64,000 nucleotides of DNA from a virus. Taxonomy: Duplodnaviria; Heunggongvirae; Uroviricota; Caudoviricetes. The position numbers and the translations under genes were made by a program. The notes under the pieces are model-generated. The model saw only the letters and a program-made list of their open reading frames with translations. It had not been told where the DNA came from and made no database searches. This document shows positions 2 through 50,302 of the stretch, piece after piece; the stretch's first letter is position 1, and each line of letters starts with the position of its first letter. The DNA lies in the IMG/VR virus record IMGVR_UViG_3300033076_001232, positions 142,435-206,434 of that record; one strand, 5' to 3'.

Positions 2-1111
2 AGATGGGATGATCTTCTGGTTTTATTTGGAACTCCATTGCAGGAGGATGCTTTCGGTTTAATTAAAACCGCACTAGAATCAGAAAATGGATTATGTGCA
101 AAGTGGATGCCTAGAAAAGGTCCAATTGCGAACGAGTTAAGAAAGTTTATGAACATGACTCCGAAGGAGTATAGAAAATTGCTTGTTTCTCTAACTAATG
201 TGGTTGAGCAAAACATGTGTTTAAATAAATGGGAAGACATTAATTATTCAAATGTTCCATCGGTCGCTGCTGCAAGATACCAAAATGCTTTCTATAGAAA
301 GGATCAGAAAAGATACGCTGAGTACATTCGTCTTTTAAGCATGCCTAGTGAAGAAAGACCAAATGAAATAAAAATCAATGCTCAAGCGGTTTATCCCTAT
401 GATGTTATTAAATCTCTAAACAGAGGTAATAAGGACGTTGCAACCGAACAATGGAAGGCTCTTCCTAATTATATGGAGGGAAATACTGAAATGATTCTAC
501 CTGTAGTTGATGTTTCAGGTTCTATGATGTCCTCAGTATCTGGTGGATCTTCCTTAACTTGTATGGACGTATCAGTGTCTTTAGGACTTTATATCTCGGA
601 AAGAAATAACGGGCCTTTCCAGGATCACTTTATAACATTTAGTGAGAGCCCTAGTCTACAGAAATTATCGGGTAATCTTTATGATAGATATTGTCAATTA
701 TCCGAATCCGATTGGGGAATGTCAACTAATCTAGAATCTGTATTCAATTTGATTCTAAAGCAAGCTACTAAACACAACATCTCTGAATCTGAAATGCCAT
801 CTAAAATATTGATTCTTTCCGATATGGAGTTCGATGAATGTATAATGGACGGTGAAAGTACATCTGCGATGGAGATGATCAGAAAGAAGTACTCTGATGC
901 TGGATATAAGCTTCCTTCGATTATATTCTGGAATATCCAGAGCAGAAGAGGTGGAAATAATATACCTGTTAGATTTGATGAGATGGGAACTGCTTTAGTT
1001 TCTGGATTTTCTCCTTCGATACTTAAATCAATATTAGCTGGTTCTGAAATAAGCCCGATGGAGATAATGAACCAGACGATAAATTCGGAAAGGTATCAAA
1101 AAGTATCATAA
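2..1111 (+). CDS. vWA-domain protein, 5'-truncated at window edge (MIDAS-like VVDVSGSM; possibly Ro60/TROVE-like or DUF2828-like)
   Basis: Reading frame open from nt 2 to stop at 1109-1111; no in-window start (track begins at TTG 38); DxSGS MIDAS-type motif. Confidence 0.6.
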   Translation, partial: RWDDLLVLFGTPLQEDAFGLIKTALESENGLCAKWMPRKGPIANELRKFMNMTPKEYRKLLVSLTNVVEQNMCLNKWEDINYSNVPSVAAARYQNAFYRKDQKRYAEYIRLLSMPSEERPNEIKINAQAVYPYDVIKSLNRGNKDVATEQWKALPNYMEGNTEMILPVVDVSGSMMSSVSGGSSLTCMDVSVSLGLYISERNNGPFQDHFITFSESPSLQKLSGNLYDRYCQLSESDWGMSTNLESVFNLILKQATKHNISESEMPSKILILSDMEFDECIMDGESTSAMEMIRKKYSDAGYKLPSIIFWNIQSRRGGNNIPVRFDEMGTALVSGFSPSILKSILAGSEISPMEIMNQTINSERYQKVS

Positions 1112-3428: not shown

Positions 3429-3917
3429 GGGCCCGCTTTGGATTTGACAGGCGGAGGTAGTTCTTTGAGATGCAGGCAGTCTTAGATTGGAAAGACTTTA
3501 ATTACCTATCAAACAATAAACGCAAACGTTTACAATTCTGAGGATATCATGAGTATCCCAACTTCACTTACTCGCTCTGTAGTAGCTGAAGAGGTTGAGC
3601 TAGCTGTTGCAGCCTAACCAATTGGCGGCAACTGCCAATTATAAAAGAAAGTTGCAAGCTGGCAAGAAAAAAGGTTCGTAGTATTGCCTATTTGACATTG
3701 AGTGGAACCTTGAGGATTAGTTCAATACCCATTAAGATCGTCACTATCAATGTCAGTGAAACTTGGTTAGTACCGGGGAGTAAACCAGACCGAGCATTAA
3801 GTCTGAAAGAAAAAAGAAACGCACCAAAAGTTTGTTGATGTCGAAAAATCAACTAAGCCTGTGAATGAGTCCAATGGACATTCGATCTGGACGAGGGTTC
3901 GACTCCCTCCGGGTCCA
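3429..3917 (+). ncRNA. ssrA: tmRNA (transfer-messenger RNA, SsrA)
   Basis: 5' acceptor gggcccg pairs with 3' cgggtcc giving G3:U70; 5' ggatttgacagg matches conserved GGAUUCGACGGG; T-arm gaggg-ttcgact-ccctc; internal tag ORF ending gct gtt gca gcc taa (..LAVAA*) with uagua-GCU resume context; helix after stop codon. Confidence 0.85.
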
Positions 3918-3968
3918 CTTTTTTGAAACATTTTAGATAAATACTAATATAAAAATTAAATTATTATT

Positions 3969-4435: not shown

Positions 4436-4927
4436 ATGCTTTTAAGAACAATTAAAAATTACGCCCTACTCCGAATTTACAAGACCTCTAGGTTTTTCAA
4501 GACTGGAAAATTCAAATCCGTAAAGAGAAGCAAAAAAGAAAGGACTCTTCAGAAGATAATCAAGGGGGTTTTAAATGATCCAAAAAGCCGAGTTTATTAC
4601 TCACCGGAAAGCTACCGAATATTCACTCACAACCAGGATAAGACATACATCATCTCGTTTGATGATCGTGAGATTAGAATCACGAATCACCGTTTCTTTT
4701 CCAGCTTCCAAGTAAATCCAGATTTTGCCCGCTCCATAATAAGAGAAGCATTTGCTCGGATAGAAAGAGATATGCAGGCATTAGAAAGCGAATCTGTTTG
4801 TAACGAGGATTTCTTCCTGAATGAGGTTTATGATAAATTTAGTTCCTCTGGAACTAATGAAGAGATGCCGACGAAGGAAACCGAGAAATACTTCGAGGAT
4901 ATTCTAAATGAGAGCACTCTGTCATAG
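4436..4927 (+). CDS. Hypothetical protein
   Basis: ORF with coding-like composition; abuts mgsA-like gene. Confidence 0.5.
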   Translation: MLLRTIKNYALLRIYKTSRFFKTGKFKSVKRSKKERTLQKIIKGVLNDPKSRVYYSPESYRIFTHNQDKTYIISFDDREIRITNHRFFSSFQVNPDFARSIIREAFARIERDMQALESESVCNEDFFLNEVYDKFSSSGTNEEMPTKETEKYFEDILNESTLS

Positions 4928-4929
4928 TT

Positions 4930-5295
4930 ATGAGAATAGCAGTAATTGCCCATGACAATAAAAAAGCTGACCTTGTAGCTTTTATTCTTAAAAGATTAGA
5001 TTTTTTTAAAGAGCATGAAATCGTAGCTACTGGAACTACAGGAAAACACATCGAGCATGCCGGCATAGAAGTGAACAAGAAGCTATCTGGTCCTAAGGGT
5101 GGAGATGCACAAATAGCAGCAGAGCTTGTAGATGGTAAAATAGATGGTGTTTTATTTTTCATAGATCCTCTAACATCGCATCCTCACGAGGTTGACGTTC
5201 AGATGCTTTTAAGATTATGTAATGTTTGGAACATTCCAATTGCTACAAATTATTCCACAGCAAAACTTTTAGTTGAAGCGATAACAAAAAAATAA
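4930..5295 (+). CDS. mgsA: Methylglyoxal synthase
   Basis: AHDNKK, ATGTTG, SGPKGGD, DPLTSHPHEVDV, LLRLCNVWNIPIATN align with MgsA catalytic/phosphate-binding motifs. Confidence 0.8.
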   Translation: MRIAVIAHDNKKADLVAFILKRLDFFKEHEIVATGTTGKHIEHAGIEVNKKLSGPKGGDAQIAAELVDGKIDGVLFFIDPLTSHPHEVDVQMLLRLCNVWNIPIATNYSTAKLLVEAITKK

Positions 5296-5302
5296 ATATT
5301 CG

Positions 5303-6055
5303 ATGATAGTATGTTTTATATCGGATACTCACTGTCAGCATTCAAGTAGAAAATTAGAATTTTATCTGGACAGAATTCTGGAGAAATATCCAGATTCTAC
5401 TATAGTCCACTGTGGCGATATTTCAAGTCGGGGTAGATTTACAGAAATAGAAGATTTTCTTTCGTGGTATTCAGACCTAGGGTTTAAAAATAAAATAATG
5501 ATCTCAGGTAATCACGATTTCTTCTTCGATTATGATCGTACACCAATAACTGATATGGGTAGATCTAGACACGGAAATCCGATGTATTCGAAGGAAGATG
5601 TTTACGATTTACTTTCAAAATATCCACAGATAATTTATTTGAATGATTCGGGTATCACCTTGGATGGAATAAACTTTTGGGGTAGCCCAGTAACCCCGTG
5701 GTTCCATGACTGGGCTTTTAATAGGACTGAGGAAACGATAATAGATCATTGGAAAATGATTCCTGATAATACGAACATCCTGATAACTCATGGTCCTCCA
5801 AGAGGTATATTAGATCTTACCTACAATGGATACACCAATGTAGGTTGTATAGAACTAGCTGGAAAAACTTTTGATTTAAAAGAACTTATGGTCCATGCTT
5901 TCGGACATATTCACGAGGCATTTGGTATTGAGACTGTCGATGAGGTAACCTATATAAATGCTTCGTTTCTGAATTTCAACTATCAGCCTTTAAATTCACC
6001 GATAATATTTGACACTGAGAGTAAAAAATCTTATATTTTTTCGATTCAGGATTGA
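5303..6055 (+). CDS. Calcineurin-like metallophosphoesterase
   Basis: GD (CGDISS), GNHD, THGPP, GHIHE metallophosphatase motifs in order. Confidence 0.7.
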   Translation: MIVCFISDTHCQHSSRKLEFYLDRILEKYPDSTIVHCGDISSRGRFTEIEDFLSWYSDLGFKNKIMISGNHDFFFDYDRTPITDMGRSRHGNPMYSKEDVYDLLSKYPQIIYLNDSGITLDGINFWGSPVTPWFHDWAFNRTEETIIDHWKMIPDNTNILITHGPPRGILDLTYNGYTNVGCIELAGKTFDLKELMVHAFGHIHEAFGIETVDEVTYINASFLNFNYQPLNSPIIFDTESKKSYIFSIQD

Positions 6056-6100: not shown

Positions 6101-6877
6101 ATGAGAACATTCCAATACCCTTCCGATGCTATAAAATGGACTAAGGAAAGGTTATCAGATCACGGTTACGTTGTTAAAACAGAGAAATGGCAGGGCATAG
6201 AAGCTCCTGATGACATGTATGAAATAATGAACCATTCTTTTCAAATGGTTATACCGAAATCTATGGAAGAACTTGTTGATGAGGTAAAACCAAATTTACC
6301 TTGGGCTAATGAGCATTTCTTAGAAAGGGTTGGTGGACTTCCGCTCAATCCCCCGCCATCTCATGTTAACTGGCCATTCGCTCAGAAGAATAACGAGCAG
6401 TTTGGTGGCAATGATAGATTTTCCCACACATATCCGGAGAGAATTTGGCCTAAATACGCTTCCGAAGTTCCAAATTCTTCTATGGAAGGTATTAGATTTT
6501 CCTATGGTGATTTTGGTGATGTGCTGGATCTATTAGAGAAGGAGCCTTTTACGAGACAGGCATTCCTCCCGATCTGGTTTCCCGAAGATACCGGGGTAAC
6601 TCACGGAGAAAGAGTACCCTGCACCATTGGTTATCATTTTATGAGAAGAGGTAATTTTTTCCATATCTCCTACTTTATTAGATCTTGTGATTATATAAGA
6701 CACTTTAGAGATGACATATACCTAGCCATCAGAAAGCTAATGTGGATTCTGGATGAGCTTAAAAAAAGAGATCCGGAGAGATGGGGTGATGTTGTTCCGG
6801 GTTATTTTGCAATGCACATAGTTTCGCTTCATTGCTTTAACCGTGAGAAAGGACTTTTAAAACTAAGTAATAAGTAA
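6101..6877 (+). CDS. Divergent thymidylate-synthase-family protein (dCMP/dUMP hydroxymethylase-like)
   Basis: FTRQAFLPIW (cf. DSRRIIxxAWN), catalytic-Cys context VPCTIGYHF, RSCDYIRHFRDDIY (cf. ThyA RSCD / T4 gp42 RSNDVVFGFRNDY) with ThyA-like spacing. Confidence 0.55.
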   Translation: MRTFQYPSDAIKWTKERLSDHGYVVKTEKWQGIEAPDDMYEIMNHSFQMVIPKSMEELVDEVKPNLPWANEHFLERVGGLPLNPPPSHVNWPFAQKNNEQFGGNDRFSHTYPERIWPKYASEVPNSSMEGIRFSYGDFGDVLDLLEKEPFTRQAFLPIWFPEDTGVTHGERVPCTIGYHFMRRGNFFHISYFIRSCDYIRHFRDDIYLAIRKLMWILDELKKRDPERWGDVVPGYFAMHIVSLHCFNREKGLLKLSNK

Positions 6878-11353: not shown

Positions 11354-12421
11354 ATGCGGAACAACACAAAATTCGACTTTGACGATATTCTAATCCAGCC
11401 TGCTGTAGTTAGTAGCATTTCCTCCAGAAGTGAGATCACTGTTACTTATGAGGATGGACATCTTCCTCTTTTCACAGCTCCTATGGATACTGTTGTTAGC
11501 TCTTCTAATGTTGAGATCTTTCAAAAACACGGGATAAGAGTTGTAAAGCCGAGGACAATGAATAATCAATACGATTACTCTGGATCTAATTTCAATGAAT
11601 TTTTATCGTTGGGATTAGATGATTTCAATACCATATTCTTAGATAAAGACCGATTTGAATCCGAGGATAAGCTATATGTTCTTATAGACATTGCAAATGG
11701 ACATATGCTAAAACTAATCGACTCAGTAAAGAAATCTAAAGAAATATACGGTGACAGATTAATTCTAATGGTTGGTAATGTTGCTAATCCCAAGACTTAT
11801 TCCGATCTATCAGATGCTGGAGCAGATTACGTAAGAGTCGGAATAGGTAATGGAGGTGGATGTCTCACTACGGTACAAACTGGTGTTGGTTATCCGATGG
11901 GATCTTTAATAAAGGAATGTTACATCGAAAGCTGTTTTATCAATAATCCTGCTAAAATAGTAGCTGATGGAGGATTTAAAAGTTACTCTGACATAATAAA
12001 AGCTTTAGCACTTGGAGCTGATTATGTGATGTTGGGTTCGATCCTTAATAAAGCCCTTGAAAGTGCAGGTGGAACTTACATGGAGGAATATACCAGCAGA
12101 TCTGAACCTAGAGAAACGATAGATCAATACTCAGAAAAAGCAAAAGAGCTTTTTGAGAATGGAACTAAGATGATCAAAAGTTTTAGAGGTATGAGTACAA
12201 AAGAGGCTCAGAAAGCTATGGGTAAAACTGTATTCAAAACTAGCGAGGGTGTTAACCGAATGCACCCAGTTGAATACACTCTAGAAGGATGGACTGATAA
12301 TTTCAGAAGTTATCTTTCATCCGCTATGAGTTATTCAAATGCTAGAAATCTAAAGGATTTTATAGGTTTGACTAAGTACAACTTCGTAACAGAGAGTTCA
12401 ATTAACAGGTATAGAAAATGA
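11354..12421 (+). CDS. guaC: GMP reductase / IMP dehydrogenase-family enzyme
   Basis: FTAPMDTV, IDIANGH, GIGNGGGCLTTVQTGVGYP, ADGG, GADYVMLGS align with GuaC motifs incl. catalytic Cys loop. Confidence 0.7.
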   Translation: MRNNTKFDFDDILIQPAVVSSISSRSEITVTYEDGHLPLFTAPMDTVVSSSNVEIFQKHGIRVVKPRTMNNQYDYSGSNFNEFLSLGLDDFNTIFLDKDRFESEDKLYVLIDIANGHMLKLIDSVKKSKEIYGDRLILMVGNVANPKTYSDLSDAGADYVRVGIGNGGGCLTTVQTGVGYPMGSLIKECYIESCFINNPAKIVADGGFKSYSDIIKALALGADYVMLGSILNKALESAGGTYMEEYTSRSEPRETIDQYSEKAKELFENGTKMIKSFRGMSTKEAQKAMGKTVFKTSEGVNRMHPVEYTLEGWTDNFRSYLSSAMSYSNARNLKDFIGLTKYNFVTESSINRYRK

Positions 12422-14295: not shown

Positions 14296-16233
14296 GTGAA
14301 GGTATTTTTCATAGTCCCGCATTTGTCTACTGGAGGAATGCCGGAATATCTAAAGAATAAGATAGAGAAAATAAAGGACTCCTGTGAAATATGGGTTTTT
14401 GAAAAATCACACGAGAGGACTTATAACACAATCAGGAAAAGAATAGAATCTTTAATAGGACCAGAACGTATAATTACATTGGGTGCTAAGAAAAAGATAC
14501 TATTGGAATCCATAAGATCGATTGGTCCGGATGTTATACATTTCGAAGAACCCTGCGAGCATTTTCTTTCTGACGATATTCTTGAAGAGATATTTTATAG
14601 TGAAAGAAAATATCGTATCCTAGAAACTTTCCATGATTCGTCAATGCAGCCAGAGGAAAAAAAATTCTTGCCTGATAAATTTATAGTGGTTAGTCCATGG
14701 CAGGTTAAGTTGTTGCAGAAGTTAAAAATCCCTATGGAAGTTATTGAACATCAATTAGAGAAAAGGGAATTTAGAAATTCCGATGCAGCCAAGAATAAGC
14801 TAGGGTTAGATACCGGGCATAAACACGTGGTTCAAATTGGAATATTCACGCCAAGAAAAAACCAATCAGAGACAATTAATATAGCCAGATTAACCCCACA
14901 GATACAGTATCACTTCATTGGTACTTTGGCGGATAATTTCAAATGGTACTGGGAACCTTTGCTGAGAGATCTTCCCCCCAACTGTAAAATTTGGGGTGAG
15001 CGTGATGATGTTGATCTTTTTTATGAGGCTGCAGATCTTATCATATTTCCTTCCATAGAAAGATTCAACGATAAGGAAACAAGCCCTCTCGTTTTAAAGG
15101 AAGCTATCTCTTGGAAGACACCTCTTTTGATGAAGAACACCGATGTTTATTCAGACATGTATCAAGAATCAGATACGGTTCATTTCATGGGGGGTTCAAT
15201 AAATTATAATTCTAGAAAAATTTTACAAATATTAGGAGAAATGGAAACAGGAGGACAAAAATTCTCGGCTAGATTTGAAGCCGATGAAAATAAATTAATA
15301 GTGGGTCTTATGGAAAATGAGATAGGCGATGTTACCGTATCTATTAAGGATAGGGATTCTAACACCTGCATATTTTCATTTTCTCTAGATGCACAGTATG
15401 CGGGATCCGAATGGTGGTGTATCCCGATACCTAAGCCATACTTTGATTTTATGGGTGATAGAAACTTTAGTGGTTTCTTAGTCGAGTTTTACAAGTCATT
15501 GAACGAGGATCCAATCGAATCTTTGATTGTAGACCTAGATAAAAAACCCATCATGAAAAAAATGATAAACTCCGGTGGTCCTATTAACTTCGATCCTATT
15601 TTCGTAAATTACACACAGTTCTTTGTTGATGGAATTTATAACCAATTCTTTGCAGGCACCCGAGTGACAACTGCCATCGACATAGGAGCTAATGTTGGTC
15701 TTTTTACCGAATGGGTACTTGATAGATTCGGAAGCGACACGAAAGTAATTTCGGTTGAGCCAAATAGCAAAGCATGCGAATCATTCAGTTACATGCACTC
15801 AGGAAAAGAGAATGTTATTTTAGAAAAGCTTGCAGTCACTTCCACTGATAACGATGTGATCAAACTTTTAGTAAATCCGGAGAATACCCTAATATCTAGT
15901 GTAGAAGGTACTGGAGATGGCTACTCAGATTCAGAGGAGATCGGTACCATATCTCTCCTTAGTTTATTGGAAAAGCATGGTCTCTCTGAGGTTGATCTTC
16001 TTAAGGTTGACGTGGAGGGAGCAGAATATGATATATTTAGCGTTGTTTCACCGGAGGATCTCAGAAGGTTTAAGCACATGCTAATTGAATTTCATAACAA
16101 TAGAGGCAGAGCATCCGATTTGATATCAAAGATAATCTCTGCTGGTTTTGACGTGGATCTTAGAGACGACGATACAAGGTATCAAGTGGATCAGAACAAC
16201 GATAGAGGAACCATATTTGCAACAAGAAAATGA
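14296..16233 (+). CDS. Bifunctional glycosyltransferase (GT-B fold) / FkbM-family methyltransferase
   Basis: GTG start; GT-B C-terminal half motifs (EAADLIIFPS..E..PLVLKEA); C-terminal TAIDIGANVGLFTEWVL FkbM-like SAM motif. Confidence 0.6.
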   Translation: MKVFFIVPHLSTGGMPEYLKNKIEKIKDSCEIWVFEKSHERTYNTIRKRIESLIGPERIITLGAKKKILLESIRSIGPDVIHFEEPCEHFLSDDILEEIFYSERKYRILETFHDSSMQPEEKKFLPDKFIVVSPWQVKLLQKLKIPMEVIEHQLEKREFRNSDAAKNKLGLDTGHKHVVQIGIFTPRKNQSETINIARLTPQIQYHFIGTLADNFKWYWEPLLRDLPPNCKIWGERDDVDLFYEAADLIIFPSIERFNDKETSPLVLKEAISWKTPLLMKNTDVYSDMYQESDTVHFMGGSINYNSRKILQILGEMETGGQKFSARFEADENKLIVGLMENEIGDVTVSIKDRDSNTCIFSFSLDAQYAGSEWWCIPIPKPYFDFMGDRNFSGFLVEFYKSLNEDPIESLIVDLDKKPIMKKMINSGGPINFDPIFVNYTQFFVDGIYNQFFAGTRVTTAIDIGANVGLFTEWVLDRFGSDTKVISVEPNSKACESFSYMHSGKENVILEKLAVTSTDNDVIKLLVNPENTLISSVEGTGDGYSDSEEIGTISLLSLLEKHGLSEVDLLKVDVEGAEYDIFSVVSPEDLRRFKHMLIEFHNNRGRASDLISKIISAGFDVDLRDDDTRYQVDQNNDRGTIFATRK

Positions 16234-18542
16234 GAATAGCACAGATTACCCCTGGTGTAATTCCGATCCCACCAAATGGATGGGGTGCAGTTGAAAAAAT
16301 AATATGGGAATACACTAAAGTACTTAGATCATTAGGACATCATGTAGAGATATTATATTCAAGTGAGGTCAATCCGGACGAATGGGACATAGTACATGTT
16401 CATATGGCAAATCTTGCCCTGGATCTAAAGTCAAGAGGAATACCTTACATCTTCTCACATCATGATCACCATGCCTATCACTTTGGTAAAGAATCTCACA
16501 CTTACAAAGAAAACTTGGAAGCTATCCAGGGATCAATTGTGAGCTTCGTACATGCTAAATATTTAGTTGATTATTTTGGAGGCGGGGATAAATTAAGGTA
16601 CTTGGGTCACGGGGTTAATATCTGGGACTATGAGTTTAATGATAAATCCAGAAGCATTAAAGAGGGAAACATCTCATTGCTAATGTTAGCTAATAACGGC
16701 CTGGGCGGTGATAAGATGTACGATAGAAAGGGATTCAAATACGGAATAGAATCCGCAAGAAGATTGAATCTACCAATAACGATAATATGTCCATCCGATA
16801 ATTCCGATTTGATAGAATCAGTAGATCCCTACGAGAAGCTAACTCTCAAATATAATCTGGGCTATTTGGACACCCTGGAGGAAATAAGAAATCACCACAT
16901 TTTTTTGAATCCTTCGATGTTAGAGGCTGGACACCCAAACCTCACTGTTACTGAGATGTTGTCTCTGGGAATTCCAGTGATCGGTACGTGTGAGTCGGAA
17001 ATCCCAGGATTGGTGAGATTGCCACTAGCATCGGATCTTAGTATAGATTTAGATAATCTATGTGAATCTATAGAGAAAGCAATTAGAACTTATCCGCAGT
17101 TAGTTTTAGAATGTAAGAGAATCAGGGAATCACTTTCATGGGAGGTGGTTGTATCTAAGATGCTAATGGAGTACTCGTCATTCGCTAAGATCGATCAAAA
17201 GGAGCTTATTTTAAGCTCGTATAAGACTCCAATTAGAAAAGACATATTAACAGATGTTCGGGGGTTCGATTGCTCGTTTAATGGCTCTATTTACGCTTAC
17301 AAATCAGCCAATACACCTTCGATAACTTCAGTTTCATTTAAAGATAGAGGAACTAACCAGATAATATATAAATCCAAGTTTTCTAAATCGTCTAAATCCT
17401 GGATTATGTATGGCGATTCACCTAATAGATTCATAGACTGGGAGGTTGTTTTTAAGGTTGGAGACATTGAGGTATTTAAAAAATCGATGGATCTAAGGGA
17501 CAATCATGTTCTTGTTATTGGCGAGATTGGATCTGATAAATCCGAAATGTTATCGGATTTTGAGAAAACTACCGGATGTATACTATCATTAAGAGATTCT
17601 GAAATTAGTGGATTTTTCAAATCCGATGGATCCGATGATCTATACTATAGAAAGCTAAACCCAGAACAAATCTTAGATTTTTTCTCCCCCAAGGATAAGA
17701 TCACTAGCCGAACATTAATTACTCTGGAAACTGGATCTCTGGGTGACAATATAGCTTTCATTCCCTATGCTAATGAATATGGTAAGAAGATAGGTGAAAA
17801 AGTCGATGTTATCATGCCACACAAGGATCTATTTACCGATGTATATGAATGGGTAAACTTTGTAGATTCAGATGGATTGCATCCTTATACTAACTATGTA
17901 GCCATTGATTACATTTTCGAAAAACCCCTACAAGAGGGTGCGGCATACCAGCTAGGATTAGATTATCAAGAGATAAGACCGGAAATAAAACAGAGACAAT
18001 CCTTAGATATACCTTCGGGCAAATATGTGTGTTTCTCCATGCACAGCACAGCACAGGCTAAGCATTGGAATTATGACAAAGGATGGTCAAAACTATGTAA
18101 TGAATTGAAGTTAATGGGTATTACTCCAGTTTGCATAGATCGATACGAATCATTTGGTACAGAGGACAATTGGAATCCTATCCCTAAAAATTGTGTCAAT
18201 ATGACTGGGGGTGACCTAACAAGAATGATAGAAATAATTAGTGGGTGTGAATACTTTATAGGACTTTCTAGCGGTTTATCTTGGTTGGCACATGCACTAG
18301 GAAAGAGAGTGGTGATGATATCGGGGGTCACTTCTCCAGAAAATGAATTCACAATTGATTGCCTAAGAATACACGATTCCAGCGTTTGTAATTCGTGTTT
18401 TAATAAGTGTAAGGATTACGAGTTCGATCCCGGAGATTGGATGTGGTGTCCTGAATTTAGGGGAACCTCTAGACAGTTCGAATGTACTAAAGGTATATCT
18501 GCACATAGAATAATATCAGAAATAAAGAAAATCGGGTGGTAA
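16230..18542 (+). CDS. Multidomain glycosyltransferase: N-terminal GT4-like, C-terminal GT9 (heptosyltransferase-like)
   Basis: GWGAVEKI..HVH N-terminal GT4 features; C-terminal ETGSLGDNIAF and GGDLTRMIEIISGCEYFIGLSSGLSWLAHALG GT9 motifs. Confidence 0.6.
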   Translation: MRIAQITPGVIPIPPNGWGAVEKIIWEYTKVLRSLGHHVEILYSSEVNPDEWDIVHVHMANLALDLKSRGIPYIFSHHDHHAYHFGKESHTYKENLEAIQGSIVSFVHAKYLVDYFGGGDKLRYLGHGVNIWDYEFNDKSRSIKEGNISLLMLANNGLGGDKMYDRKGFKYGIESARRLNLPITIICPSDNSDLIESVDPYEKLTLKYNLGYLDTLEEIRNHHIFLNPSMLEAGHPNLTVTEMLSLGIPVIGTCESEIPGLVRLPLASDLSIDLDNLCESIEKAIRTYPQLVLECKRIRESLSWEVVVSKMLMEYSSFAKIDQKELILSSYKTPIRKDILTDVRGFDCSFNGSIYAYKSANTPSITSVSFKDRGTNQIIYKSKFSKSSKSWIMYGDSPNRFIDWEVVFKVGDIEVFKKSMDLRDNHVLVIGEIGSDKSEMLSDFEKTTGCILSLRDSEISGFFKSDGSDDLYYRKLNPEQILDFFSPKDKITSRTLITLETGSLGDNIAFIPYANEYGKKIGEKVDVIMPHKDLFTDVYEWVNFVDSDGLHPYTNYVAIDYIFEKPLQEGAAYQLGLDYQEIRPEIKQRQSLDIPSGKYVCFSMHSTAQAKHWNYDKGWSKLCNELKLMGITPVCIDRYESFGTEDNWNPIPKNCVNMTGGDLTRMIEIISGCEYFIGLSSGLSWLAHALGKRVVMISGVTSPENEFTIDCLRIHDSSVCNSCFNKCKDYEFDPGDWMWCPEFRGTSRQFECTKGISAHRIISEIKKIGW

Positions 18543-21425: not shown

Positions 21426-22391
21426 ATGGCAGAAATACTAAATCTGGTAAATCCGAAAGATAGCTTATCCTTTAAATATGAGATAAGCAGGTTCCCTGAC
21501 GGCCAGCAATCATTAAGACTGATTGAGGATGGTTACAACACATTCAATTCACTAAAGAATGCGGCGATCAAAATAAAGTCAAGACTAAACAATTTCCAGG
21601 ATTTGGAAATTATCATTTGCGCAACACAAGCTCTTAGGGAGGTTGGAGTGAATGATATCAGTCTTTACATTCCTTATTGTGTTGGTGCTAGAAGCGACCG
21701 AAAATTTTCAGAGGGTGGAATCAATTATGTTAAGACGGTGATTGCACCTATTATCAATTCACAGGGCTACTCGAGTGTCACAATACTTGATCCACATTCT
21801 GATGTGCTTGAGGCTTGCATTAACAATTTCAAAAAGATAAACAATTTCAATTTAGTCAATTTTTCTTTGAAAGAAATCCTACTTGAAGATTGGAGAAAAA
21901 CTTCGGACGATATTGGTTTCGAAGGGTGGTACAAATACGACTGGCTAAAGAACCCGGACATTGTCCTAGTTTCACCCGATGCAGGTGCTTATAAGAAAAT
22001 TTTTGATGTTGCAGAAAATTTCAGAATTAAGAGCATAGCAACAGCGGTCAAAGTTCGAGATTTGGAAACTGGAAAGATCCTGAGAACGGAGGTTCCAAAT
22101 TTACCCATTAGCACAACAGGAAAAGAATTTAGGTATGTAATTATCGATGACATTTGTGATGGCGGTAGAACATTCATTGAATTGGCAAAAGCGATCAAAG
22201 CTAGTCGCCCAACTGCTGAGATCTATTTAGTGGTCACTCATGGAATCTTCAGTGCTGGGTATGCTGAATTAGGAAAATATTTTAATGGAATCTATTGTAC
22301 AAACTCGGTAAAGGACATCGTACACGATCCAGAAGACACCGACCTCGAAAGAGAAATGAAGGAAAAAGTAAAACAATTAAACGTATTCTAA
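21426..22391 (+). CDS. Ribose-phosphate pyrophosphokinase-family protein (Prs-like; possibly ADPR-pyrophosphate synthase type)
   Basis: FPDGQ, IPYCVGARSDRK (cf. IPYFGYARQDRR), ILDPHS, VSPDAGA, VIIDDICDGGRTF PRPP-binding loop. Confidence 0.7.
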   Translation: MAEILNLVNPKDSLSFKYEISRFPDGQQSLRLIEDGYNTFNSLKNAAIKIKSRLNNFQDLEIIICATQALREVGVNDISLYIPYCVGARSDRKFSEGGINYVKTVIAPIINSQGYSSVTILDPHSDVLEACINNFKKINNFNLVNFSLKEILLEDWRKTSDDIGFEGWYKYDWLKNPDIVLVSPDAGAYKKIFDVAENFRIKSIATAVKVRDLETGKILRTEVPNLPISTTGKEFRYVIIDDICDGGRTFIELAKAIKASRPTAEIYLVVTHGIFSAGYAELGKYFNGIYCTNSVKDIVHDPEDTDLEREMKEKVKQLNVF

Positions 22392-29448: not shown

Positions 29449-31020
29449 ATGAAAGGAATAAACCCAGCCCTTCTAACCGACGGTTATAAAACAGGGCACC
29501 ATCAGCAATACCCGGAGGGAACAACTCTAGTGTATTCTAACTTTACCCCAAGAAGTAACAAGTATGCACCTAAGGGATGCGATCATGTTGTTTCTTTTGG
29601 TCAGCAACTTATCATGAAGCAGATTCACGAGAGCTTCCAAAAAGATTTCTTCGATCAGCCTAAAGATGAGGTGTGCTCGGAAATTAAGAGAGAGCTTTCT
29701 CTTTATCTAGGAGTCGATTACGATGTTAGTCACTTCGAAGCCCTTCACGATCTTGGATATTTACCTATTAAGGTTAAAGCAATCAAAGAGGGAACTTTAG
29801 TGCCAATCAAGGTTCCTGTCTTGACTATCTATAATACGGATCCCAACTTTTACTGGGTAACCAACTATTTGGAAACACTAATCTCAAATCTTCTTTGGAA
29901 GCCAATGACTTCCGCAACAATTGCTTACCAATACAAGAGAGTTCTTACCGATTGGGCTCTTAAAACCGACAAGGAAAACAAAACATTTGTTCAGTGGCAA
30001 GGTCACGATTTCTCTATGAGAGGTATGGATTCAGTGGATGCTGTAATTTCTTCCGGTCTTGGACACCTAACATCTTTTACTGGAACAGATTCCCTTCCTG
30101 CAATTTACGGAGCTCGTAAGTATTACGGAGCGGAAGGATTTGTCGCAGCGTCAGTGCCAGCAACAGAACACTCGGTAATGTGTGCTGGCGGGAAAGAGGA
30201 TGAGATTGAGACATTCCGAAGACTGATTAAGACTTACCCTGCTGGTATCTTGTCAGTAGTATCTGATACTTGGGATTTGTGGAAAGTGTGTACGGAGCAT
30301 GTGGTTACTTTGAAAGAAGAGATTTTGGCTCGTGATGGTAAGTTGGTTATTCGTCCTGATAGTGGTGACCCGGTTGATATCCTTTGCGGTACAGAAGATT
30401 ATACAAAATCTAAATTACCTTATGATGAGGTTAAAGATGTAGAAGTTATGCACCCTAGCCAAAAAGGTGTAATTGAACTTCTTTGGGATGTATTTGGAGG
30501 AACTGTTAACGAACAAGGTTACAAAGTACTTGATCCACATATCGGAGCAATCTATGGCGATAGCATTACTATCGATCGTGCTGAGCAAATCTGCAGCAGA
30601 TTAGCTTCAAAGGGATTTGCATCAACAAACGTAGTGCTTGGGGTAGGATCTTTCACTTACCAGTACAACACCCGCGATACATTTGGTTTTGCAATGAAGG
30701 CAACTTATGTTGAGGTTAAGGTTCCTAAATATGGTGATTTTGCGGACCAAGGGTTGAATACCGAAATTGAAGGTAGAGAAATCTTCAAAGATCCAATCAC
30801 CGATGATGGAACGAAGAAATCTGCAACTGGCTTACTAAGCGTAGTTAGCCGTCCAGGTGAAGGTTTAACCCTAGTTGATAAGTGCGACTGGAAACATGAA
30901 AATGTCGGAGCATTGGAAACAATCTACCACGACGGAAAATCTAGCTCCGAGATCACTCTTTCTGAAATTAGAAACAATCTTGAATTTTCTTTGATTAAAG
31001 AGAGAGAAATTATTTTTTAA
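29449..31020 (+). CDS. Nicotinamide phosphoribosyltransferase-family protein (NAMPT/NadV-like; possibly Namat-type)
   Basis: VPATEHSVM, SFTGTDS, IRPDSGDPV motifs conserved with NAMPT. Confidence 0.7.
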   Translation: MKGINPALLTDGYKTGHHQQYPEGTTLVYSNFTPRSNKYAPKGCDHVVSFGQQLIMKQIHESFQKDFFDQPKDEVCSEIKRELSLYLGVDYDVSHFEALHDLGYLPIKVKAIKEGTLVPIKVPVLTIYNTDPNFYWVTNYLETLISNLLWKPMTSATIAYQYKRVLTDWALKTDKENKTFVQWQGHDFSMRGMDSVDAVISSGLGHLTSFTGTDSLPAIYGARKYYGAEGFVAASVPATEHSVMCAGGKEDEIETFRRLIKTYPAGILSVVSDTWDLWKVCTEHVVTLKEEILARDGKLVIRPDSGDPVDILCGTEDYTKSKLPYDEVKDVEVMHPSQKGVIELLWDVFGGTVNEQGYKVLDPHIGAIYGDSITIDRAEQICSRLASKGFASTNVVLGVGSFTYQYNTRDTFGFAMKATYVEVKVPKYGDFADQGLNTEIEGREIFKDPITDDGTKKSATGLLSVVSRPGEGLTLVDKCDWKHENVGALETIYHDGKSSSEITLSEIRNNLEFSLIKEREIIF

Positions 31021-37383: not shown

Positions 37384-37932
37384 ATGGAAACAAAAATTGA
37401 TCCTAGAGAGATTGAAAAAATCGAAAAATTAACAGGGGGTAAAATCGGAACTCATACCTTTGGTCCAAACCAAGAACACACTTTGGAGAATTCCTTTCTA
37501 TCTCAGGATGGAACATATATTGGAGACTTCGAAAGAGCTCAATGGTACGTTGAACAAAAATTGATGGTCGACGAGGAATACCCACATGGAGTTGCTGCCG
37601 TTATTAAGGACGAAACCTACGGAACAGAAATTCCGGAAATAGAAGGCATGTATGGTTACACTCACAGAGGGGGTCAAATGTTTAAAATCGGTGATCGATT
37701 ATTTGACGAAAGTTACAAACCACAGAAGGAGGACTATCCCGAGGATGAATGGTCGAAGTATGAGGAGAGCTTTAAAAAATCTTACGATGAGGCAGACGAC
37801 CTAAATAAAAAATGGATGGATAACGACGGAATCTCTTATGTTATCCCATTTAAAATGAGAGGGAGAAAGAATATCGAAACTATGAGGGAGGCTTTCGAAG
37901 CAGCTAGAAACATGTCAAAGTATTTAAGTTAA
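37384..37932 (+). CDS. Hypothetical protein
   Basis: ORF track. Confidence 0.45.
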   Translation: METKIDPREIEKIEKLTGGKIGTHTFGPNQEHTLENSFLSQDGTYIGDFERAQWYVEQKLMVDEEYPHGVAAVIKDETYGTEIPEIEGMYGYTHRGGQMFKIGDRLFDESYKPQKEDYPEDEWSKYEESFKKSYDEADDLNKKWMDNDGISYVIPFKMRGRKNIETMREAFEAARNMSKYLS

Positions 37933-43653: not shown

Positions 43654-44016
43654 ATGAGAAAAATTAAGATTCTTTACGATTTTCTTAGATTGTGGATTAT
43701 GTGGGGAGATAGGAAGGAAGCATGGCAAGACGCAAATTCTATAAACGATCCTAATTTCCAGAAAGAACTGGAAGAGATATCCAATAAGTTAGATCAGGTT
43801 CTCTTAGAAAAGAATCCAAATTTTAAAGAAGTCTGTCTTGAGATATCTCAAAGACTTTCCAATTTACCTTACGATAATGGAGACATATCAGACATCGGTA
43901 ACGAGATAGGTATTGTTCTGGGTAAACATATCCAGGATGGGTCTTTCGGATGGGAAAGAGGAGATTTAAATTCTGGACTAAATCATGGTATATCAATAGC
44001 TAATGGAACACACTAA
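43654..44016 (+). CDS. Hypothetical protein
   Basis: ORF track. Confidence 0.4.
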   Translation: MRKIKILYDFLRLWIMWGDRKEAWQDANSINDPNFQKELEEISNKLDQVLLEKNPNFKEVCLEISQRLSNLPYDNGDISDIGNEIGIVLGKHIQDGSFGWERGDLNSGLNHGISIANGTH

Positions 44017-45163
44017 GAATATGAATAACATAGACAAGCAGTACTTAGATCTACTCCAGGATATATTGGACAATGGAGTAGAAAAAAGAGATAGAACCGG
44101 AACGGGGACTATCTCAGTTTTTGGTAGACAGATAAGACATAAGATGTCGGAAGGATTTCCTTTGCTTACGACGAAGAAGATGTACTGGAAAGGAATCGTA
44201 ACCGAGCTACTTTGGTTTTTAAGAGGTGATACCAATATTAAATTCTTGGTCGATAACAACTGCCACATCTGGGACGGCGACGCATACAAGAACTATCAGA
44301 GCAAACAAAAGAAACCTAAGGTCGGAGACTGGGAAAATTACATAGATTGCTACTGTGGACATACCGATACATGTTCTTGCGGAATTATGTCAAAGACAGA
44401 ATTTATAGAAAAAATTAAATCAAGCAAAGTGTTCTCAGATAAATGGGGAGAGCTCGGTCCTATTTATGGAAAGCAGTGGAGATCATTCGGTCCATCTGAC
44501 GAATACTATAATGGAACAGAGTGGGTTTATATAAGCCCAATAGATCAGATAGCTAAAGCTATAGAAATGATAAAGGAGGATCCAGATTCTAGAAGAATTA
44601 TGGTTACCGCATGGAATCCCTCAGATTTGCCTAAATCTGTACTCCCACCTTGCCATTATGGATTTCAATTTTATACAAGAGAGTTGAGCGATGAAGAAAG
44701 AGTAAAGTTATATGAACAAAAAACAAACACAGATACTTCATTCTTTCCAGTACTTACAGAAACCTTAGCTTTCCATAATATACCAACCAGAGCAATCTCT
44801 TTAATGTATAATGCCAGAAGTCAAGATGTTCCTCTAGGAACACCGTTTAATATAGCTTCATATGCTCTTCTTCTTTCGATAATTGCAGAAATAACTAACA
44901 CTGTACCGGAAGAAGTTATAGCTAACATGGGGGATTGTCACATCTATCTAAATCAGATAGATGGCATAAAGGAACAGATAAGCAGGTCTCCAAAAGAGTT
45001 GCCTCAATTGCAGATCAACAAGGAACCATTTGACAATTATCTTTTCGCCTCACATTCAGAAAAAACGTCAATCAATCATTTAATTAACGATTTGAAGCCG
45101 GAACACTTTAATATTTCGGGATATGATCCACATCCAACGATAAAGATTCCATTGAGTAATTAA
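44003..45163 (+). CDS. thyA: Thymidylate synthase (ThyA) with two internal insertions
   Basis: DRTGTGT, LLWFLRGDTN, DLGPIYGKQWR, DPDSRRIMVTAWN, PPCHYGFQFY, PFNIASYALL, GDCHIYLNQ, YDPHP all in ThyA order; ~45-aa Cys-rich insert and ~30-aa insert. Confidence 0.85.
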   Translation: MEHTKNMNNIDKQYLDLLQDILDNGVEKRDRTGTGTISVFGRQIRHKMSEGFPLLTTKKMYWKGIVTELLWFLRGDTNIKFLVDNNCHIWDGDAYKNYQSKQKKPKVGDWENYIDCYCGHTDTCSCGIMSKTEFIEKIKSSKVFSDKWGELGPIYGKQWRSFGPSDEYYNGTEWVYISPIDQIAKAIEMIKEDPDSRRIMVTAWNPSDLPKSVLPPCHYGFQFYTRELSDEERVKLYEQKTNTDTSFFPVLTETLAFHNIPTRAISLMYNARSQDVPLGTPFNIASYALLLSIIAEITNTVPEEVIANMGDCHIYLNQIDGIKEQISRSPKELPQLQINKEPFDNYLFASHSEKTSINHLINDLKPEHFNISGYDPHPTIKIPLSN

Positions 45164-45180: not shown

Positions 45181-45669
45181 ATGCCAGTAATGATAAAGGA
45201 TTCACGTTTCTATAATAACGGATCATCAAATAGAGCCTTTGGAACTTCCGGAATGGCTGGAATACCAGGAATTCCCGGGGTTTCTGGATTTGTCTCAATC
45301 ACGGAAGGTCTCCCAGTTTCATATGAAGAAATTCCCAGAACTGCCAAATTAGAAAGCAGATTTGTAGATTTGTACGACGATTACGATTTCTCACTATATT
45401 CCGCCGAATTAAAGAATCAATCCAGTATAATTGATGTGGTAAGCAGGGTGTCTTCTGAAGTAAGCGATTCAAATCCAGTAGGGAGCAAAGGAAATGTCGG
45501 AAAGGTAAAAAATGAAGTTGTCGGTATTAACACACAGATCTCTAAGAAATCTAAAAATCTTAAAGGAAGTAGTATTAAGAAAGAAAAAAATCAAATTTTA
45601 AAAACTGTTCTGCAGAACTTTTTCCCAGTAAGCGCATTTACTTCTATTTACGAAAAAATTAGAAGATGA
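45181..45669 (+). CDS. Hypothetical protein
   Basis: ORF track. Confidence 0.45.
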   Translation: MPVMIKDSRFYNNGSSNRAFGTSGMAGIPGIPGVSGFVSITEGLPVSYEEIPRTAKLESRFVDLYDDYDFSLYSAELKNQSSIIDVVSRVSSEVSDSNPVGSKGNVGKVKNEVVGINTQISKKSKNLKGSSIKKEKNQILKTVLQNFFPVSAFTSIYEKIRR

Positions 45670-49445: not shown

Positions 49446-49447
49446 TT

Positions 49448-50301: not shown

Positions 50302-50302
50302 G

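Follow-up and report, generated by a model that had tools for sequence, protein, structure and literature searches.

The window analysed here is a 64,000-nucleotide stretch of viral DNA from a genome larger than 200 kb. Near its start resides mgsA, a short open reading frame (ORF) whose product resembles methylglyoxal synthase (MgsA), within a tightly packed string of genes that share its orientation (Table 1). As the initial annotation had stated, the gene is located between a hypothetical ORF, which has no assigned family, and a gene for a calcineurin-like metallophosphoesterase.

Table 1. Features of the mgsA locus, including the conserved motifs of its product and the E. coli MgsA residues to which they correspond
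Feature	Position	Strand	Remarks
tmRNA, phage-encoded	3429..3920	+	ARAGORN; Rfam RF00023, 87.3 bits versus a gathering score of 47
Upstream ORF, 163 aa, no assigned function	4436..4927	+	Stop 2 nt before the mgsA ATG
mgsA coding sequence	4930..5295	+	ATG..TAA ORF of 121 codons/aa plus stop; predicted short-form methylglyoxal synthase
AHDNKK motif	4948..4965	+	H8, D9, K12 = E. coli H19, D20, K23; alignment to 1B93
ATGTTG loop	5026..5043	+	T34, T36, T37 = E. coli T45, T47, T48
SGPKGGD segment	5086..5106	+	S53, G54, D59 = E. coli S65, G66, D71
DPLTSHPHEVD segment	5164..5196	+	D79, P80, H86, D89 = E. coli D91, P92, H98, D101
RLCNV segment	5212..5226	+	R95, V99 = E. coli R107, V111
Calcineurin-like metallophosphoesterase, MPPED2-like	5303..6055	+	Starts 7 nt past the mgsA stop
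Divergent thymidylate-synthase-fold protein	6101..6877	+	phrog_160, E 2e-24; same tightly packed gene string

The upstream ORF (family f28) yields no Pfam match, has only 13 metagenomic homologues, and gives a low-confidence AF2 model (pLDDT 66.5) for which Foldseek returns no match better than E 0.1. It is the conserved upstream partner of mgsA in window-like phage lineages, and the two genes probably are co-translated because they are separated by a gap of 2 nucleotides. The assignment of the downstream gene draws on matches to Pfam Metallophos (E 2e-14) and to MPPED2 in the PDB (3RL4, E 6e-45), and a metallophosphoesterase gene directly follows mgsA also in lineages L002, L009, L018 and L022. 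The thymidylate-synthase-fold protein encoded next matches TIGR03283 weakly (E 6e-5, below the cut-off) and exhibits 74-88% identity to its counterparts in related phages. The tmRNA gene, 1 kb upstream of mgsA, belongs to a block that is conserved in related phages, and a tmRNA likewise lies upstream of mgsA in L002, L009, L015, L018 and L022.

A consensus scan of the plus strand revealed no terminator-like sites between positions 3916 and 9000, which suggests, but only suggests, that mgsA is co-transcribed with its neighbours. Promoter-like sites are about as frequent as in shuffled sequence (19 versus 19.7 expected) and carry no information, which was anticipated for a Bacteroidota-type system. 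The ORF at 11354..12421 was considered as a possible methylglyoxal reductase or other detoxification partner, and this candidate was discarded since Pfam assigns it an IMPDH/GMP-reductase domain; its PHROG label is ‘dehydrogenase’, and homologues adjoin mgsA in L063 and L066. Glyoxalase, DJ-1 and aldo-keto-reductase domains were absent from the scanned ORFs of at least 120 amino acids in the window, which represents 64 kb of the more than 200 kb genome.

The initial annotation attributed the gene to a phage, and the window bears this out by its hallmark and accessory phage genes, its lack of cellular housekeeping genes, and its synteny with other IMG/VR contigs. The genes present include those for a T5 A1-like DNA transfer protein (phrog_1745, E 2e-149), a virion structural protein, an endolysin and a Tad6-like Thoeris inhibitor, as well as a Thg1-like gene. 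Nucleotide and NAD supply is represented by a Prs-like gene, NAMPT, two thymidylate-synthase-fold genes (among the window genes is ThyA), GMP-reductase-like and deoxyribosyltransferase-like genes, and a non-specific endonuclease. The closest cultured relatives are phages of Flavobacteriia, at about 44% amino acid identity, and a T9SS Por_Secre_tail sorting domain encoded in the window points to a Bacteroidota host. The host probably is a Flavobacteriia-like member of the Bacteroidota, and the phage itself probably is a large (jumbo, over 200 kb) phage of lytic type.

Synteny with IMG/VR contigs of 290-373 kb covers at least 14 genes around mgsA. The exact protein and gene order also occur on at least 24 contigs, some longer than 200 kb, from several independent sequencing runs, and this recurrence in independent assemblies rules out an assembly chimera. 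The gene is a homologue of a cellular enzyme of central carbon and phosphate metabolism and stands outside the virion, replication and lysis machinery, with viral genes on both sides. It could be proposed that mgsA is not truly viral and derives instead from mis-assembled host DNA, a prophage flank or a mislabelled bacterial contig. Such a proposal could invoke the 22 matches in INPHARED, which include unverified scaffolds and fragmentary records among those examined, and a 1.9 kb contig within the clade (L081) that was binned in a Flavobacteriaceae metagenome-assembled genome. However, L081 nearly matches the viral L064 group in sequence, and the simplest explanation is that a phage fragment was binned with this genome. 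Phage genes flank mgsA at spacings of 2-7 nucleotides, the shared gene order and the synteny described above extend across independent assemblies, and the closest cellular sequence is only ~55% identical, versus viral relatives on 133 contigs, the best 80 at 62-95%. The GC content of mgsA (35.8%) also fits the mean of window ORFs (37.2 +/- 2.4%). A non-viral origin is thus exceedingly improbable. As a test for recent transfer, GC content gives no signal because the phage gene and Flavobacterium genes are alike in this respect.

Family assignment, active site and fold

The product of mgsA exceeds the cut-offs of two NCBIfam equivalog models, NF003559 (164.9 bits, cut-off 84) and TIGR00160 (158.5 bits, cut-off 146.9), and matches the Pfam MGS family (PF02142) with an E-value of 7e-15 and a score of 55.3 versus a cut-off of 24.1. 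All 11 matches from a PDB sequence search are methylglyoxal synthases (E 1e-29 to 1e-33). This family match is far beyond chance.

The initial annotation had pointed to three motifs, and each is found in the protein: AHDNKK (residues 7-12), GGD (residues 57-59) and PHEVDV (residues 85-90). The protein was aligned with E. coli MgsA, whose reference sequence was checked against 1B93, and 14 E. coli residues were evaluated (H19, D20, K23, T45, T47, T48, S65, G66, D71, D91, P92, H98, D101 and R107). The window protein and each of 40 distinct viral homologues retain all 14. Loss of the catalytic Asp or His, which the initial annotation had named as grounds for rejecting its assignment, has not occurred, as H8, D9 and D59 are all retained.

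We take E. coli Asp71, the equivalent of D59, to be the catalytic base and His19, Asp20, Asp91, His98 and Asp101 to be active-site residues, following the structures of Saadat and Harrison, with partial support from PMC4133812. The equivalents of these six residues are invariant in 40 of 40 viral and 68 of 68 cellular sequences, as is the entire H8, D9 and K12 set of the AHDNKK motif. Phosphate is bound by E. coli Lys23, Thr45, Thr47, Thr48, Ser65 and Gly66, and this set is fully kept in the window protein (K12, T34, T36, T37, S53 and G54). The three threonines are unchanged across every viral and cellular sequence compared, and S53 and G54 are invariant in the 40 viral sequences.

The AF2 model of the protein (pLDDT 89.1, pTM 0.83) agrees with these assignments. 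Foldseek superposes it on the B. subtilis, Thermus and Borrelia enzymes with TM scores of 0.90-0.92 (the range for 6F2C, 1WO8 and 2X8W) and an rmsd of 2.0 A. The top 26 PDB matches are all MgsA structures (TM 0.86-0.92), and the next fold relatives, the MGS domains of CPS, reach a TM of about 0.7 only. Together, the equivalog matches, the 14 retained residues and the predicted fold uphold the earlier identification of an MgsA protein with an intact active site.

The allosteric features of the protein differ in part from those of the E. coli enzyme. In the latter, an inter-subunit salt bridge between Asp20 and Arg150 serves phosphate allostery, and P92, R107 and V111 constitute a second proposed allosteric path (PMC4133812). 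The equivalents of P92, R107 and V111 are kept in the window protein. The C-terminal helix that carries Arg150 is missing from every one of the 40 viral sequences aligned, as it is from 29 of 68 cellular sequences; the Asp20-Arg150 bridge is a trait of the E. coli-type long form rather than a defining feature of the family. Cooperativity towards phosphate declines when the Arg150 tail is lost (PMC4133812), and because this helix is missing, the phage enzyme is predicted to respond to phosphate less cooperatively than E. coli MgsA.

We therefore consider it likely that the ORF encodes a phage methylglyoxal synthase (EC 4.2.3.3) that is catalytically competent, as predicted from its sequence and structural model. 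This estimate covers an active, phage-encoded MgsA, and the physiological role is considered separately below.

A phage-specific clade and its gene neighbours

Relatives of the window protein are encoded on at least 133 IMG/VR contigs, many of which are 200-373 kb in length. Judging from sample identifiers, many related contigs apparently come from freshwater lakes. Two proteins of 70-72% identity (P0074 and P0115) have phage-like contexts, and in a group at 63% identity (L080) mgsA is located beside genes identified by Pfam as a T4-type DNA alpha-glucosyltransferase (AGT) and PolB. In distant viral loci, the large ORFs close to mgsA had no PHROG matches, and by Pfam those outside L080 are mostly ORFans.

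Cultured phages offer few counterparts. A megablast search of window positions 1-25000 against INPHARED gave no match, indicating that there is no close cultured relative, and MgsA falls into no PHROGs family and thus is unrepresented among cultured-phage families. A tblastn search of INPHARED with MgsA produced the 22 matches mentioned above, all below 50% identity, and no close copy in a cultured phage. These matches were rejected as examples of cultured-phage mgsA; one that was retrieved is an unannotated human-faecal scaffold marked ‘UNVERIFIED’. The description of mgsA as an uncommon auxiliary metabolic gene (AMG) is thus apt with regard to close copies in INPHARED, but it does not extend to viruses more broadly, where the gene is recurrent, is ancient within a phage-specific clade, and occurs on the many contigs noted above.

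The initial annotation had also proposed a phylogenetic comparison with cellular mgsA. In a neighbour-joining tree built on 124 columns, viral sequences are monophyletic in 357 of 500 bootstraps (71%), and Flavobacterium MgsA is the sister of the viral clade in 285 of 500 (57%), both of which are moderate values. Cellular sequences were sampled non-exhaustively by pattern matching to the query, from 185,579 species represented by one genome apiece, and the best matches to the window protein in this set are from Flavobacterium, at about 55% identity. The Flavobacterium sister set is narrow (93-99% identity) and the viral clade spans 54-99%. Transfer between phage and Flavobacterium in either direction would fit these set widths, and one possibility is that Flavobacterium acquired its uniform short-form mgsA from the more diverse phage pool. 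Substitutions that distinguish the viral clade from most cellular sequences are confined to window residues 22 (R versus N), 26 (F versus L) and 67 (V versus A), none of which is among the checked catalytic, phosphate-binding or allosteric positions.

Purifying selection on mgsA is strong. Comparison with the closest relative (L001) gives a pN of 0.039 and a pS of 0.74, the latter being saturated, and dN/dS ranges from 0.01 to 0.15 across the clade wherever dS is unsaturated. Few proteins encoded nearby are as well conserved as MgsA, as observed in two comparisons (95% versus 48-92%, and 81% versus 41-81%), and the gene is kept across phage lineages whose surrounding genes are entirely different. 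This retention amid reshuffled neighbours, together with synonymous change that has reached saturation and an active site that has stayed intact, argues that mgsA makes a genuine contribution to fitness. The same observations render it extremely unlikely that mgsA is a recently acquired, decaying passenger that is functionless for the phage; this is the generic null explanation for host-derived phage genes, and nothing specific favours such decay.

Certain neighbours recur with mgsA. Of 38 distinct viral lineages, about 20 have the gene within a few genes of one or more members of a set made up of two metallophosphoesterase families, a cREC domain protein (PF20274, E 1e-20), RNA ligases of two families (PF09414 and PF09511) and an XPD/DinG-like helicase, often directly upstream of them. 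However, a search of the window for the cREC, metallophosphoesterase and RNA-ligase families turned up only the adjacent metallophosphoesterase, and five lineages (L161-L165) have no cREC, metallophosphoesterase or RNA-ligase neighbours near mgsA. These absences weaken the case for an obligatory linkage.

One interpretation of this pattern is that the MgsA clade forms part of a phage phosphate/cyclic-phosphate module with the metallophosphoesterase, cREC and RNA ligase, in which it might act on a substrate other than dihydroxyacetone phosphate (DHAP), or in which its methylglyoxal or phosphate output might be coupled to RNA-end repair or to NAD/ADP-ribose conflict. We judge both the module and these variants of its function to be improbable. 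A more radical version, in which the MGS-fold enzyme of the phages has been neofunctionalised to serve RNA-end healing or ADP-ribose/cyclic-phosphate processing together with the products of these neighbours, and eliminates or binds phosphate on a non-DHAP substrate, is very improbable. Its proponents could cite the recurrent neighbours, the tmRNA or tRNA arrays near mgsA in several lineages, and the jumbo-phage modules of Iyer, Burroughs and Aravind that combine cREC with RNA ligase and calcineurin-like genes, although no MGS partner is mentioned for these modules as published (PMC7824862, PMC9503650). Contrary to this view, every checked residue that contacts DHAP or phosphate is unchanged, the few clade-specific substitutions fall outside the checked functional residues, and equivalog-level cut-offs are passed. 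Furthermore, in the window the Thg1/HAD RNA-repair genes are 43 kb away, and L015, in addition to the lineages listed above, lacks one of the expected neighbours, the phosphoesterase. A common accessory-gene island is a simpler account of the linkage.

Proposed mechanism and role in infected cells

The analyses above place the protein in the MgsA family with an intact active site and the family fold, and they show that its gene has a phage context, belongs to a phage-specific clade and is under strong purifying selection. The most likely mechanism, predicted from sequence, is the conversion of DHAP to methylglyoxal and phosphate. In this scheme, mgsA would be transcribed together with the surrounding plus-strand early and auxiliary genes, and its product probably would assemble as a homohexamer, as do its cellular relatives. 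Asp59 would take a proton from DHAP, phosphate would then be eliminated, and the released enol would tautomerise to methylglyoxal.

According to published physiology, MGS serves mainly to replenish inorganic phosphate when phosphate is limiting or carbon is in excess (PMC5790435), and it is inhibited allosterically by phosphate at 0.3-0.5 mM (PMC11850910). We tentatively propose that the phage enzyme provides a phosphate-releasing bypass of lower glycolysis during phage replication. Replication of a very large genome would tie up phosphate in nucleotides, and the resulting drop in free phosphate could stall glyceraldehyde-3-phosphate dehydrogenase. DHAP would then build up from blocked glycolysis and as sugars of host nucleic acids are degraded. 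Phosphate could be given back by the phage enzyme, and carbon could reach pyruvate via host methylglyoxal detoxification. The nucleotide- and NAD-supply genes that crowd the window and the phosphoesterase gene directly downstream of mgsA are in keeping with this role. Methylglyoxal also harms DNA and proteins and would place phage replication itself at risk, which speaks against it. The phosphate yield of the phage enzyme would hinge on DHAP flux in infected cells.

The main rival to the phosphate role is host poisoning, in which methylglyoxal itself is the purpose and phosphate release is incidental. Its accumulation could arrest host growth, DNA replication or translation, drain host thiols, or render the infected cell inhospitable to competitors and to superinfecting phages. 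The evidence for an active enzyme from profile matches, residues and fold serves this explanation equally well, and methylglyoxal is known to modify guanine, Arg, Lys and Cys (PMC5790435). The setting of mgsA amid takeover-type early genes (those for the A1-like protein, the non-specific endonuclease and the Tad6-like inhibitor) and the lack of a visible detoxification gene within the window also would suit a poison, and the missing Arg150 tail could relax control by phosphate. However, methylglyoxal is indiscriminate and would strike phage DNA and proteins during what presumably is a long jumbo-phage cycle, and hosts such as Flavobacterium possess mgsA themselves and so presumably detoxify its product. 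We therefore consider poisoning unlikely as the principal function. The sequence features fit both roles, which are compatible with each other. The initial annotation had raised rewired triose-phosphate flux and poisoning of host macromolecules as possibilities.

If the phage enzyme is active, then widespread uncultured large phages deliberately engage a methylglyoxal bypass in infected cells and divert carbon to methylglyoxal and D-lactate. This would constitute a new type of manipulation of central metabolism by phages, wherein triose phosphate serves as a source of free phosphate and a toxic electrophile is the price paid, and would create a testable link between the phosphorus demand of the phage and host glycolysis.

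Comparison with known systems

Viral mgsA genes have appeared previously in the literature only as entries in gene catalogues. A 120 kb viral scaffold with mgsA from Lake Baikal accounted for up to 8.8% of the reads of one sample (PMC8066274), and the gene is included in the viral AMG catalogues of plastisphere viromes (PMC12397222) and of deep-sea brine pool viruses (bioRxiv 10.1101/2024.01.25.577265). These are automatic KEGG listings under propanoate or methane metabolism, which do not imply that the scaffolds belong to the clade described here, and they lack analysis of the active site, phylogeny, selection, genomic context or mechanism of mgsA.

Among cellular enzymes, the closest relative is the short-form MgsA of Flavobacterium (F. 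johnsoniae, F. aquidurense and F. hibernum; 124 amino acids), which is 45-58% identical to the viral clade. It is of the same length class, likewise lacks the C-terminal Arg150 helix, and has identical catalytic residues, whereas it differs in being encoded by bacterial chromosomes and in the uniformity of the sampled set. The short enzymes of B. subtilis (6F2C), Thermus thermophilus and Thermus sp. GH5 (1WO8, 2X8W, 2XW6) and Borrelia burgdorferi (8U2V) exhibit 48-50% identity and share the compact alpha/beta MGS fold and active-site residues of the phage model. The Thermus enzyme, which has no Arg150 tail, is an active hexamer whose phosphate cooperativity is reduced, with a Hill coefficient (nH) of 1.5 versus 3.4 (PMC4133812). 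These proteins serve as cellular housekeeping or overflow enzymes, whereas the oligomeric state and phosphate response of the phage protein are predictions. E. coli MgsA (1B93, 1EGH, 1IK4; 152 amino acids) shares 55 of 121 aligned residues with the phage protein, including V111 in addition to the 14 residues checked, but the phage protein lacks its 11-residue N-terminal extension and the ~20-residue C-terminal Arg150 helix.

Phages are well known to reshape the carbon or phosphorus supply of their hosts, as exemplified by cyanophage talC, CP12 and zwf/gnd, and by pstS and phoH. Phage mgsA resembles these AMGs, as generally understood, in being a host-type metabolic gene that is under selection in a lytic phage whose genome is rich in nucleotide-supply genes. 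It differs in the reaction catalysed, in the host group, and in the production of a toxic electrophile. Moreover, phage mgsA would free phosphate inside the cell, whereas these other genes import phosphate or redirect flux to the pentose phosphate pathway.

Identity and active site of the phage MgsA

The initial annotation placed a methylglyoxal synthase (MGS) gene at 4930..5295 of the window, and an ORF (mgsA) occupies exactly these coordinates; all three motifs quoted for it are found in its translation (see table). The identification is correct: the protein passes both NCBIfam equivalog models for methylglyoxal synthase (NF003559, 164.9 bits, cut-off 84; TIGR00160, 158.5 bits, cut-off 146.9), Pfam assigns it an MGS domain, and 11 of 11 matches in a PDB sequence search are methylglyoxal synthases (E 1e-29 to 1e-33). 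Loss of a catalytic Asp or His was looked for in an alignment with E. coli MgsA (reference sequence identical to PDB 1B93) and distinct homologues from viruses (40) and cells (68). H19, D20, D71 (the catalytic base), D91, H98 and D101 (E. coli numbering) are all retained and, together with K23, T45, T47, T48, S65, G66, P92 and R107, are kept in the window protein and in 40/40 viral sequences. The protein carries each testable defining feature of MgsA and, judged from its sequence, is predicted to be active.

Features annotated in the window
Feature	Coordinates	Strand	Details
DUF2828/DUF7788 protein, cut by left window end	2..1111	+	phrog_850 'RNA-binding protein', E 1e-117
tmRNA	3429..3920	+	Rfam RF00023, 87.3 bits (gathering score 47); ARAGORN
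mgsA ORF	4930..5295	+	ATG-to-TAA, 121 codons
AHDNKK motif	MgsA residues 7-12
GGD motif	MgsA residues 57-59
PHEVDV motif	MgsA residues 85-90
Metallophosphoesterase, calcineurin-like, MPPED2-like	5303..6055	+	PDB 3RL4, E 6e-45
Divergent thymidylate-synthase-fold gene	6101..6877	+	phrog_160, E 2e-24; under NCBIfam cut-off
Two giant ORFs (645 and 770 aa)	14296..18542	+	Glycosyltransferase family 1, FkbM methyltransferase, heptosyltransferase-like GT9
Prs-like ribose-phosphate pyrophosphokinase	21426..22391	+
NAMPT	29449..31020	+	phrog_448, E 2.5e-191
Tad6-like Thoeris inhibitor	37384..37932	+	PF25188 (Tad6 type I Thoeris inhibitor), E 7.7e-14
ThyA (clear)	44003..45163	+	phrog_160, E 5e-108
Cytidylyltransferase-like protein	45666..46091	+
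Thg1-like tRNA-His guanylyltransferase, then two HAD 'Swiss army knife' RNA-repair proteins	48576..50848	+	PF18143, E 1.6e-19 and 5e-24
Cohesin-domain protein with T9SS C-terminal sorting domain (Por_Secre_tail), 640 aa	59927..61849	-
T5 A1-like DNA transfer protein			phrog_1745, E 2e-149
Virion structural protein
Endolysin
RNase HII
Non-specific endonuclease
GMP-reductase-like protein

Phage genome, host and gene neighbourhood

The window carries genes typical of phages (see table). No cellular housekeeping genes were seen in it, and Megablast of positions 1-25000 against INPHARED found no match to a cultured relative. At least 14 genes around mgsA keep their order on IMG/VR contigs of 43-290 kb (48-95% amino acid identity), and more distant collinearity is seen with contigs of 270-373 kb. 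Independent runs yielded at least 24 contigs, some of them 0.2-1 Mb, on which an identical MgsA is embedded in an unchanged gene order. Because of these collinear viral contigs and the gene order shared between independent runs, contamination or chimerism is very unlikely. The A1-like protein is closest (~44% identity) to those of Maribacter, Cellulophaga and Flavobacterium phages, and this affinity, together with a T9SS sorting signal that to our knowledge is specific to Bacteroidota, points to a Bacteroidota host. The sorting domain, helpful for assigning the host, is strange in a phage protein. A TonB-dependent-receptor-like gene (CarboxypepD_reg and Plug domains) is found on related phage contigs.

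Other window genes suggest additional functions. The Prs-like, NAMPT and cytidylyltransferase-like products look like a phage pathway for NAD+ salvage and reconstitution, in which the last may be an NMN adenylyltransferase. The Tad6-like product is a candidate anti-defence protein, and the giant ORFs may encode enzymes of surface-glycan or DNA-sugar modification. The DUF2828/DUF7788 gene, near the tmRNA, possibly encodes a TROVE/vWA-type RNA-binding protein of the Ro kind, and the RNA-repair cluster lies 43 kb away from mgsA.

The gene itself resides in a tightly packed plus-strand string comprising the tmRNA, two small ORFs, mgsA, the metallophosphoesterase and the thymidylate-synthase-fold gene. 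A 163-aa ORF ends 2 nt ahead of the mgsA ATG, the metallophosphoesterase that the initial annotation named as a neighbour starts 7 nt past the stop codon, and no terminator-like sites were found on the plus strand between 3916 and 9000. The tmRNA, whose tag peptide is predicted by ARAGORN as EEVELAVAA (probably an unusual tag), is retained 1-3 kb ahead of mgsA at the viral loci L002, L009, L015, L018 and L022, and the tmRNA-to-mgsA block is conserved in related phages. Since the MPPED2 family includes cyclic-nucleotide phosphodiesterases, the phosphoesterase could break down immune signals made of cyclic nucleotides, or it could heal RNA ends; other mgsA phages carry a second, unrelated metallophosphoesterase family at the same position. 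The divergent thymidylate-synthase-fold product may be a pyrimidine hydroxymethylase, which, if true, would hint at modified DNA bases.

Neighbours of mgsA differ among 38 distinct viral lineages. In about 20 of these, the gene lies within a few genes of at least one member of the linked families counted, namely two metallophosphoesterase families, cREC (PF20274), two RNA ligase families and an XPD/DinG-like helicase. The phosphoesterase alone is present in the window, L015 lacks even this gene, and the lineages L161-L165 have no metallophosphoesterase, cREC, RNA-ligase or helicase neighbours. The linkage is a regularity and not universal, and its simplest explanation is a common accessory-gene island. 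Jumbo-phage modules of cREC, RNA ligase and calcineurin-like genes have been described with no mention of an MGS partner (PMC7824862, PMC9503650). Other jumbo phage contigs that carry mgsA also have arrays of 6-8 tRNA genes within 1-8 kb of it (L008, 14206..15132; L028, 1901..2582), the former including a tRNA-Sec-like match barely at the gathering score (47.9 versus 47).

A phage-specific clade under constraint

A scan of IMG/VR recovered 133 viral contigs with MgsA relatives, the best 80 of which are 62-95% identical to the window protein, many on contigs of 200-373 kb. Among 185,579 bacterial and archaeal species (one genome per species), the top match has 61% identity and derives from a 1.9 kb contig (L081, CBFHOD010000112.1) in a 'permissive' Flavobacteriaceae MAG bin. 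Its MgsA hardly differs from those of the viral L064-L080 group and is placed within the viral clade, and the contig is probably a piece of phage DNA that was binned with the MAG; the next cellular matches are from Flavobacterium (~55%). The best 120 matches in a collection of 5.8 billion proteins are each at least 69% identical to the window MgsA; two of these (P0074 and P0115) have phage-like surroundings, with Clp protease, ThyA and SLT genes among strings of small unannotated ORFs; their contigs reach 292 kb. The most distant viral group (63%) has T4-type DNA alpha-glucosyltransferase and family B polymerase genes next to it, neighbours that mark a different phage type.

In a neighbour-joining tree of only 124 columns, with a cellular sample collected by pattern matching, the viral sequences form a single clade (357/500 bootstraps) whose sister is a Flavobacterium set (285/500). 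Identities span 54-99% (median 67%) within the viral clade versus 93-99% within the Flavobacterium set; because the former is far more diverse, transfer in either direction is possible. No member of the clade was found among INPHARED cultured phages.

Against its closest relative (L001, 95% amino acid identity), mgsA has pN 0.039 and pS 0.74 (saturated); in the comparisons that allow an estimate of dS, dN/dS is 0.01-0.15. MgsA ranks with the most strongly conserved proteins of its neighbourhood (95% versus 48-92% for neighbours in the L002 comparison; 81% versus 41-81% for L018-L022), and its GC content of 35.8% is in line with the window ORF mean (37.2 +/- 2.4%). The gene is an old resident under constraint rather than a passenger.

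The enzyme family and the category of phage auxiliary metabolic genes are known already; what is new is the large, ancient, phage-specific MgsA clade to which the window gene belongs. Viral mgsA has been listed without analysis in three metagenomic gene catalogues (PMC8066274, PMC12397222, bioRxiv 10.1101/2024.01.25.577265), one of which includes an mgsA-bearing 120 kb scaffold from Lake Baikal that recruited as much as 8.8% of the reads of one sample (PMC8066274). Methylglyoxal was not mentioned in any of the jumbo-phage papers that a literature search listed, and no published account covers the strict conservation of MgsA across diverse large phages, the toxicity of its product or the recurrent phosphoesterase and RNA-repair neighbours.

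Possible role and comparison with cellular enzymes

The best-supported mechanism would be the canonical reaction, in which dihydroxyacetone phosphate is converted to methylglyoxal and phosphate. Cellular MGS replenishes inorganic phosphate under phosphate limitation or triose phosphate build-up (PMC5790435) and is subject to phosphate inhibition at 0.3-0.5 mM (PMC11850910). A phage genome of >200 kb would lock much phosphate in nucleotides; nucleotide and NAD-supply genes are abundant in the window, and a phosphoesterase adjoins mgsA. Following accepted MGS physiology, we tentatively suggest restoration of inorganic phosphate as the most likely role of the enzyme. The main rival, that methylglyoxal itself is the agent of host shut-off, seems to us improbable as the role of the gene; the two functions can coexist. 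None of the window ORFs scanned (those of at least 120 aa, from 64 kb of the genome) had a glyoxalase, DJ-1 or aldo-keto-reductase domain.

The enzyme itself is ordinary. With 50 homologues as input, AlphaFold2 gave a model (mean pLDDT 89.1) that superimposes on the B. subtilis, Thermus and Borrelia enzymes with TM 0.90-0.92 and rmsd 2.0 A; the closest folds after these belong to MGS domains of carbamoyl-phosphate synthetase (TM ~0.7, 15-20% identity). P92, R107 and V111, a second proposed allosteric route, are retained. The sole structural departure from E. coli MgsA is the missing C-terminal helix with Arg150, the single MgsA feature that the window protein lacks and one that does not define the family. 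In E. coli, an Asp20-Arg150 inter-subunit salt bridge serves phosphate allostery; the Thermus enzyme, in which this tail is likewise absent, is still an active hexamer, with reduced phosphate cooperativity (nH 1.5 versus 3.4; PMC4133812). Flavobacterium MgsA (124 aa) resembles the phage protein in having no Arg150 tail.
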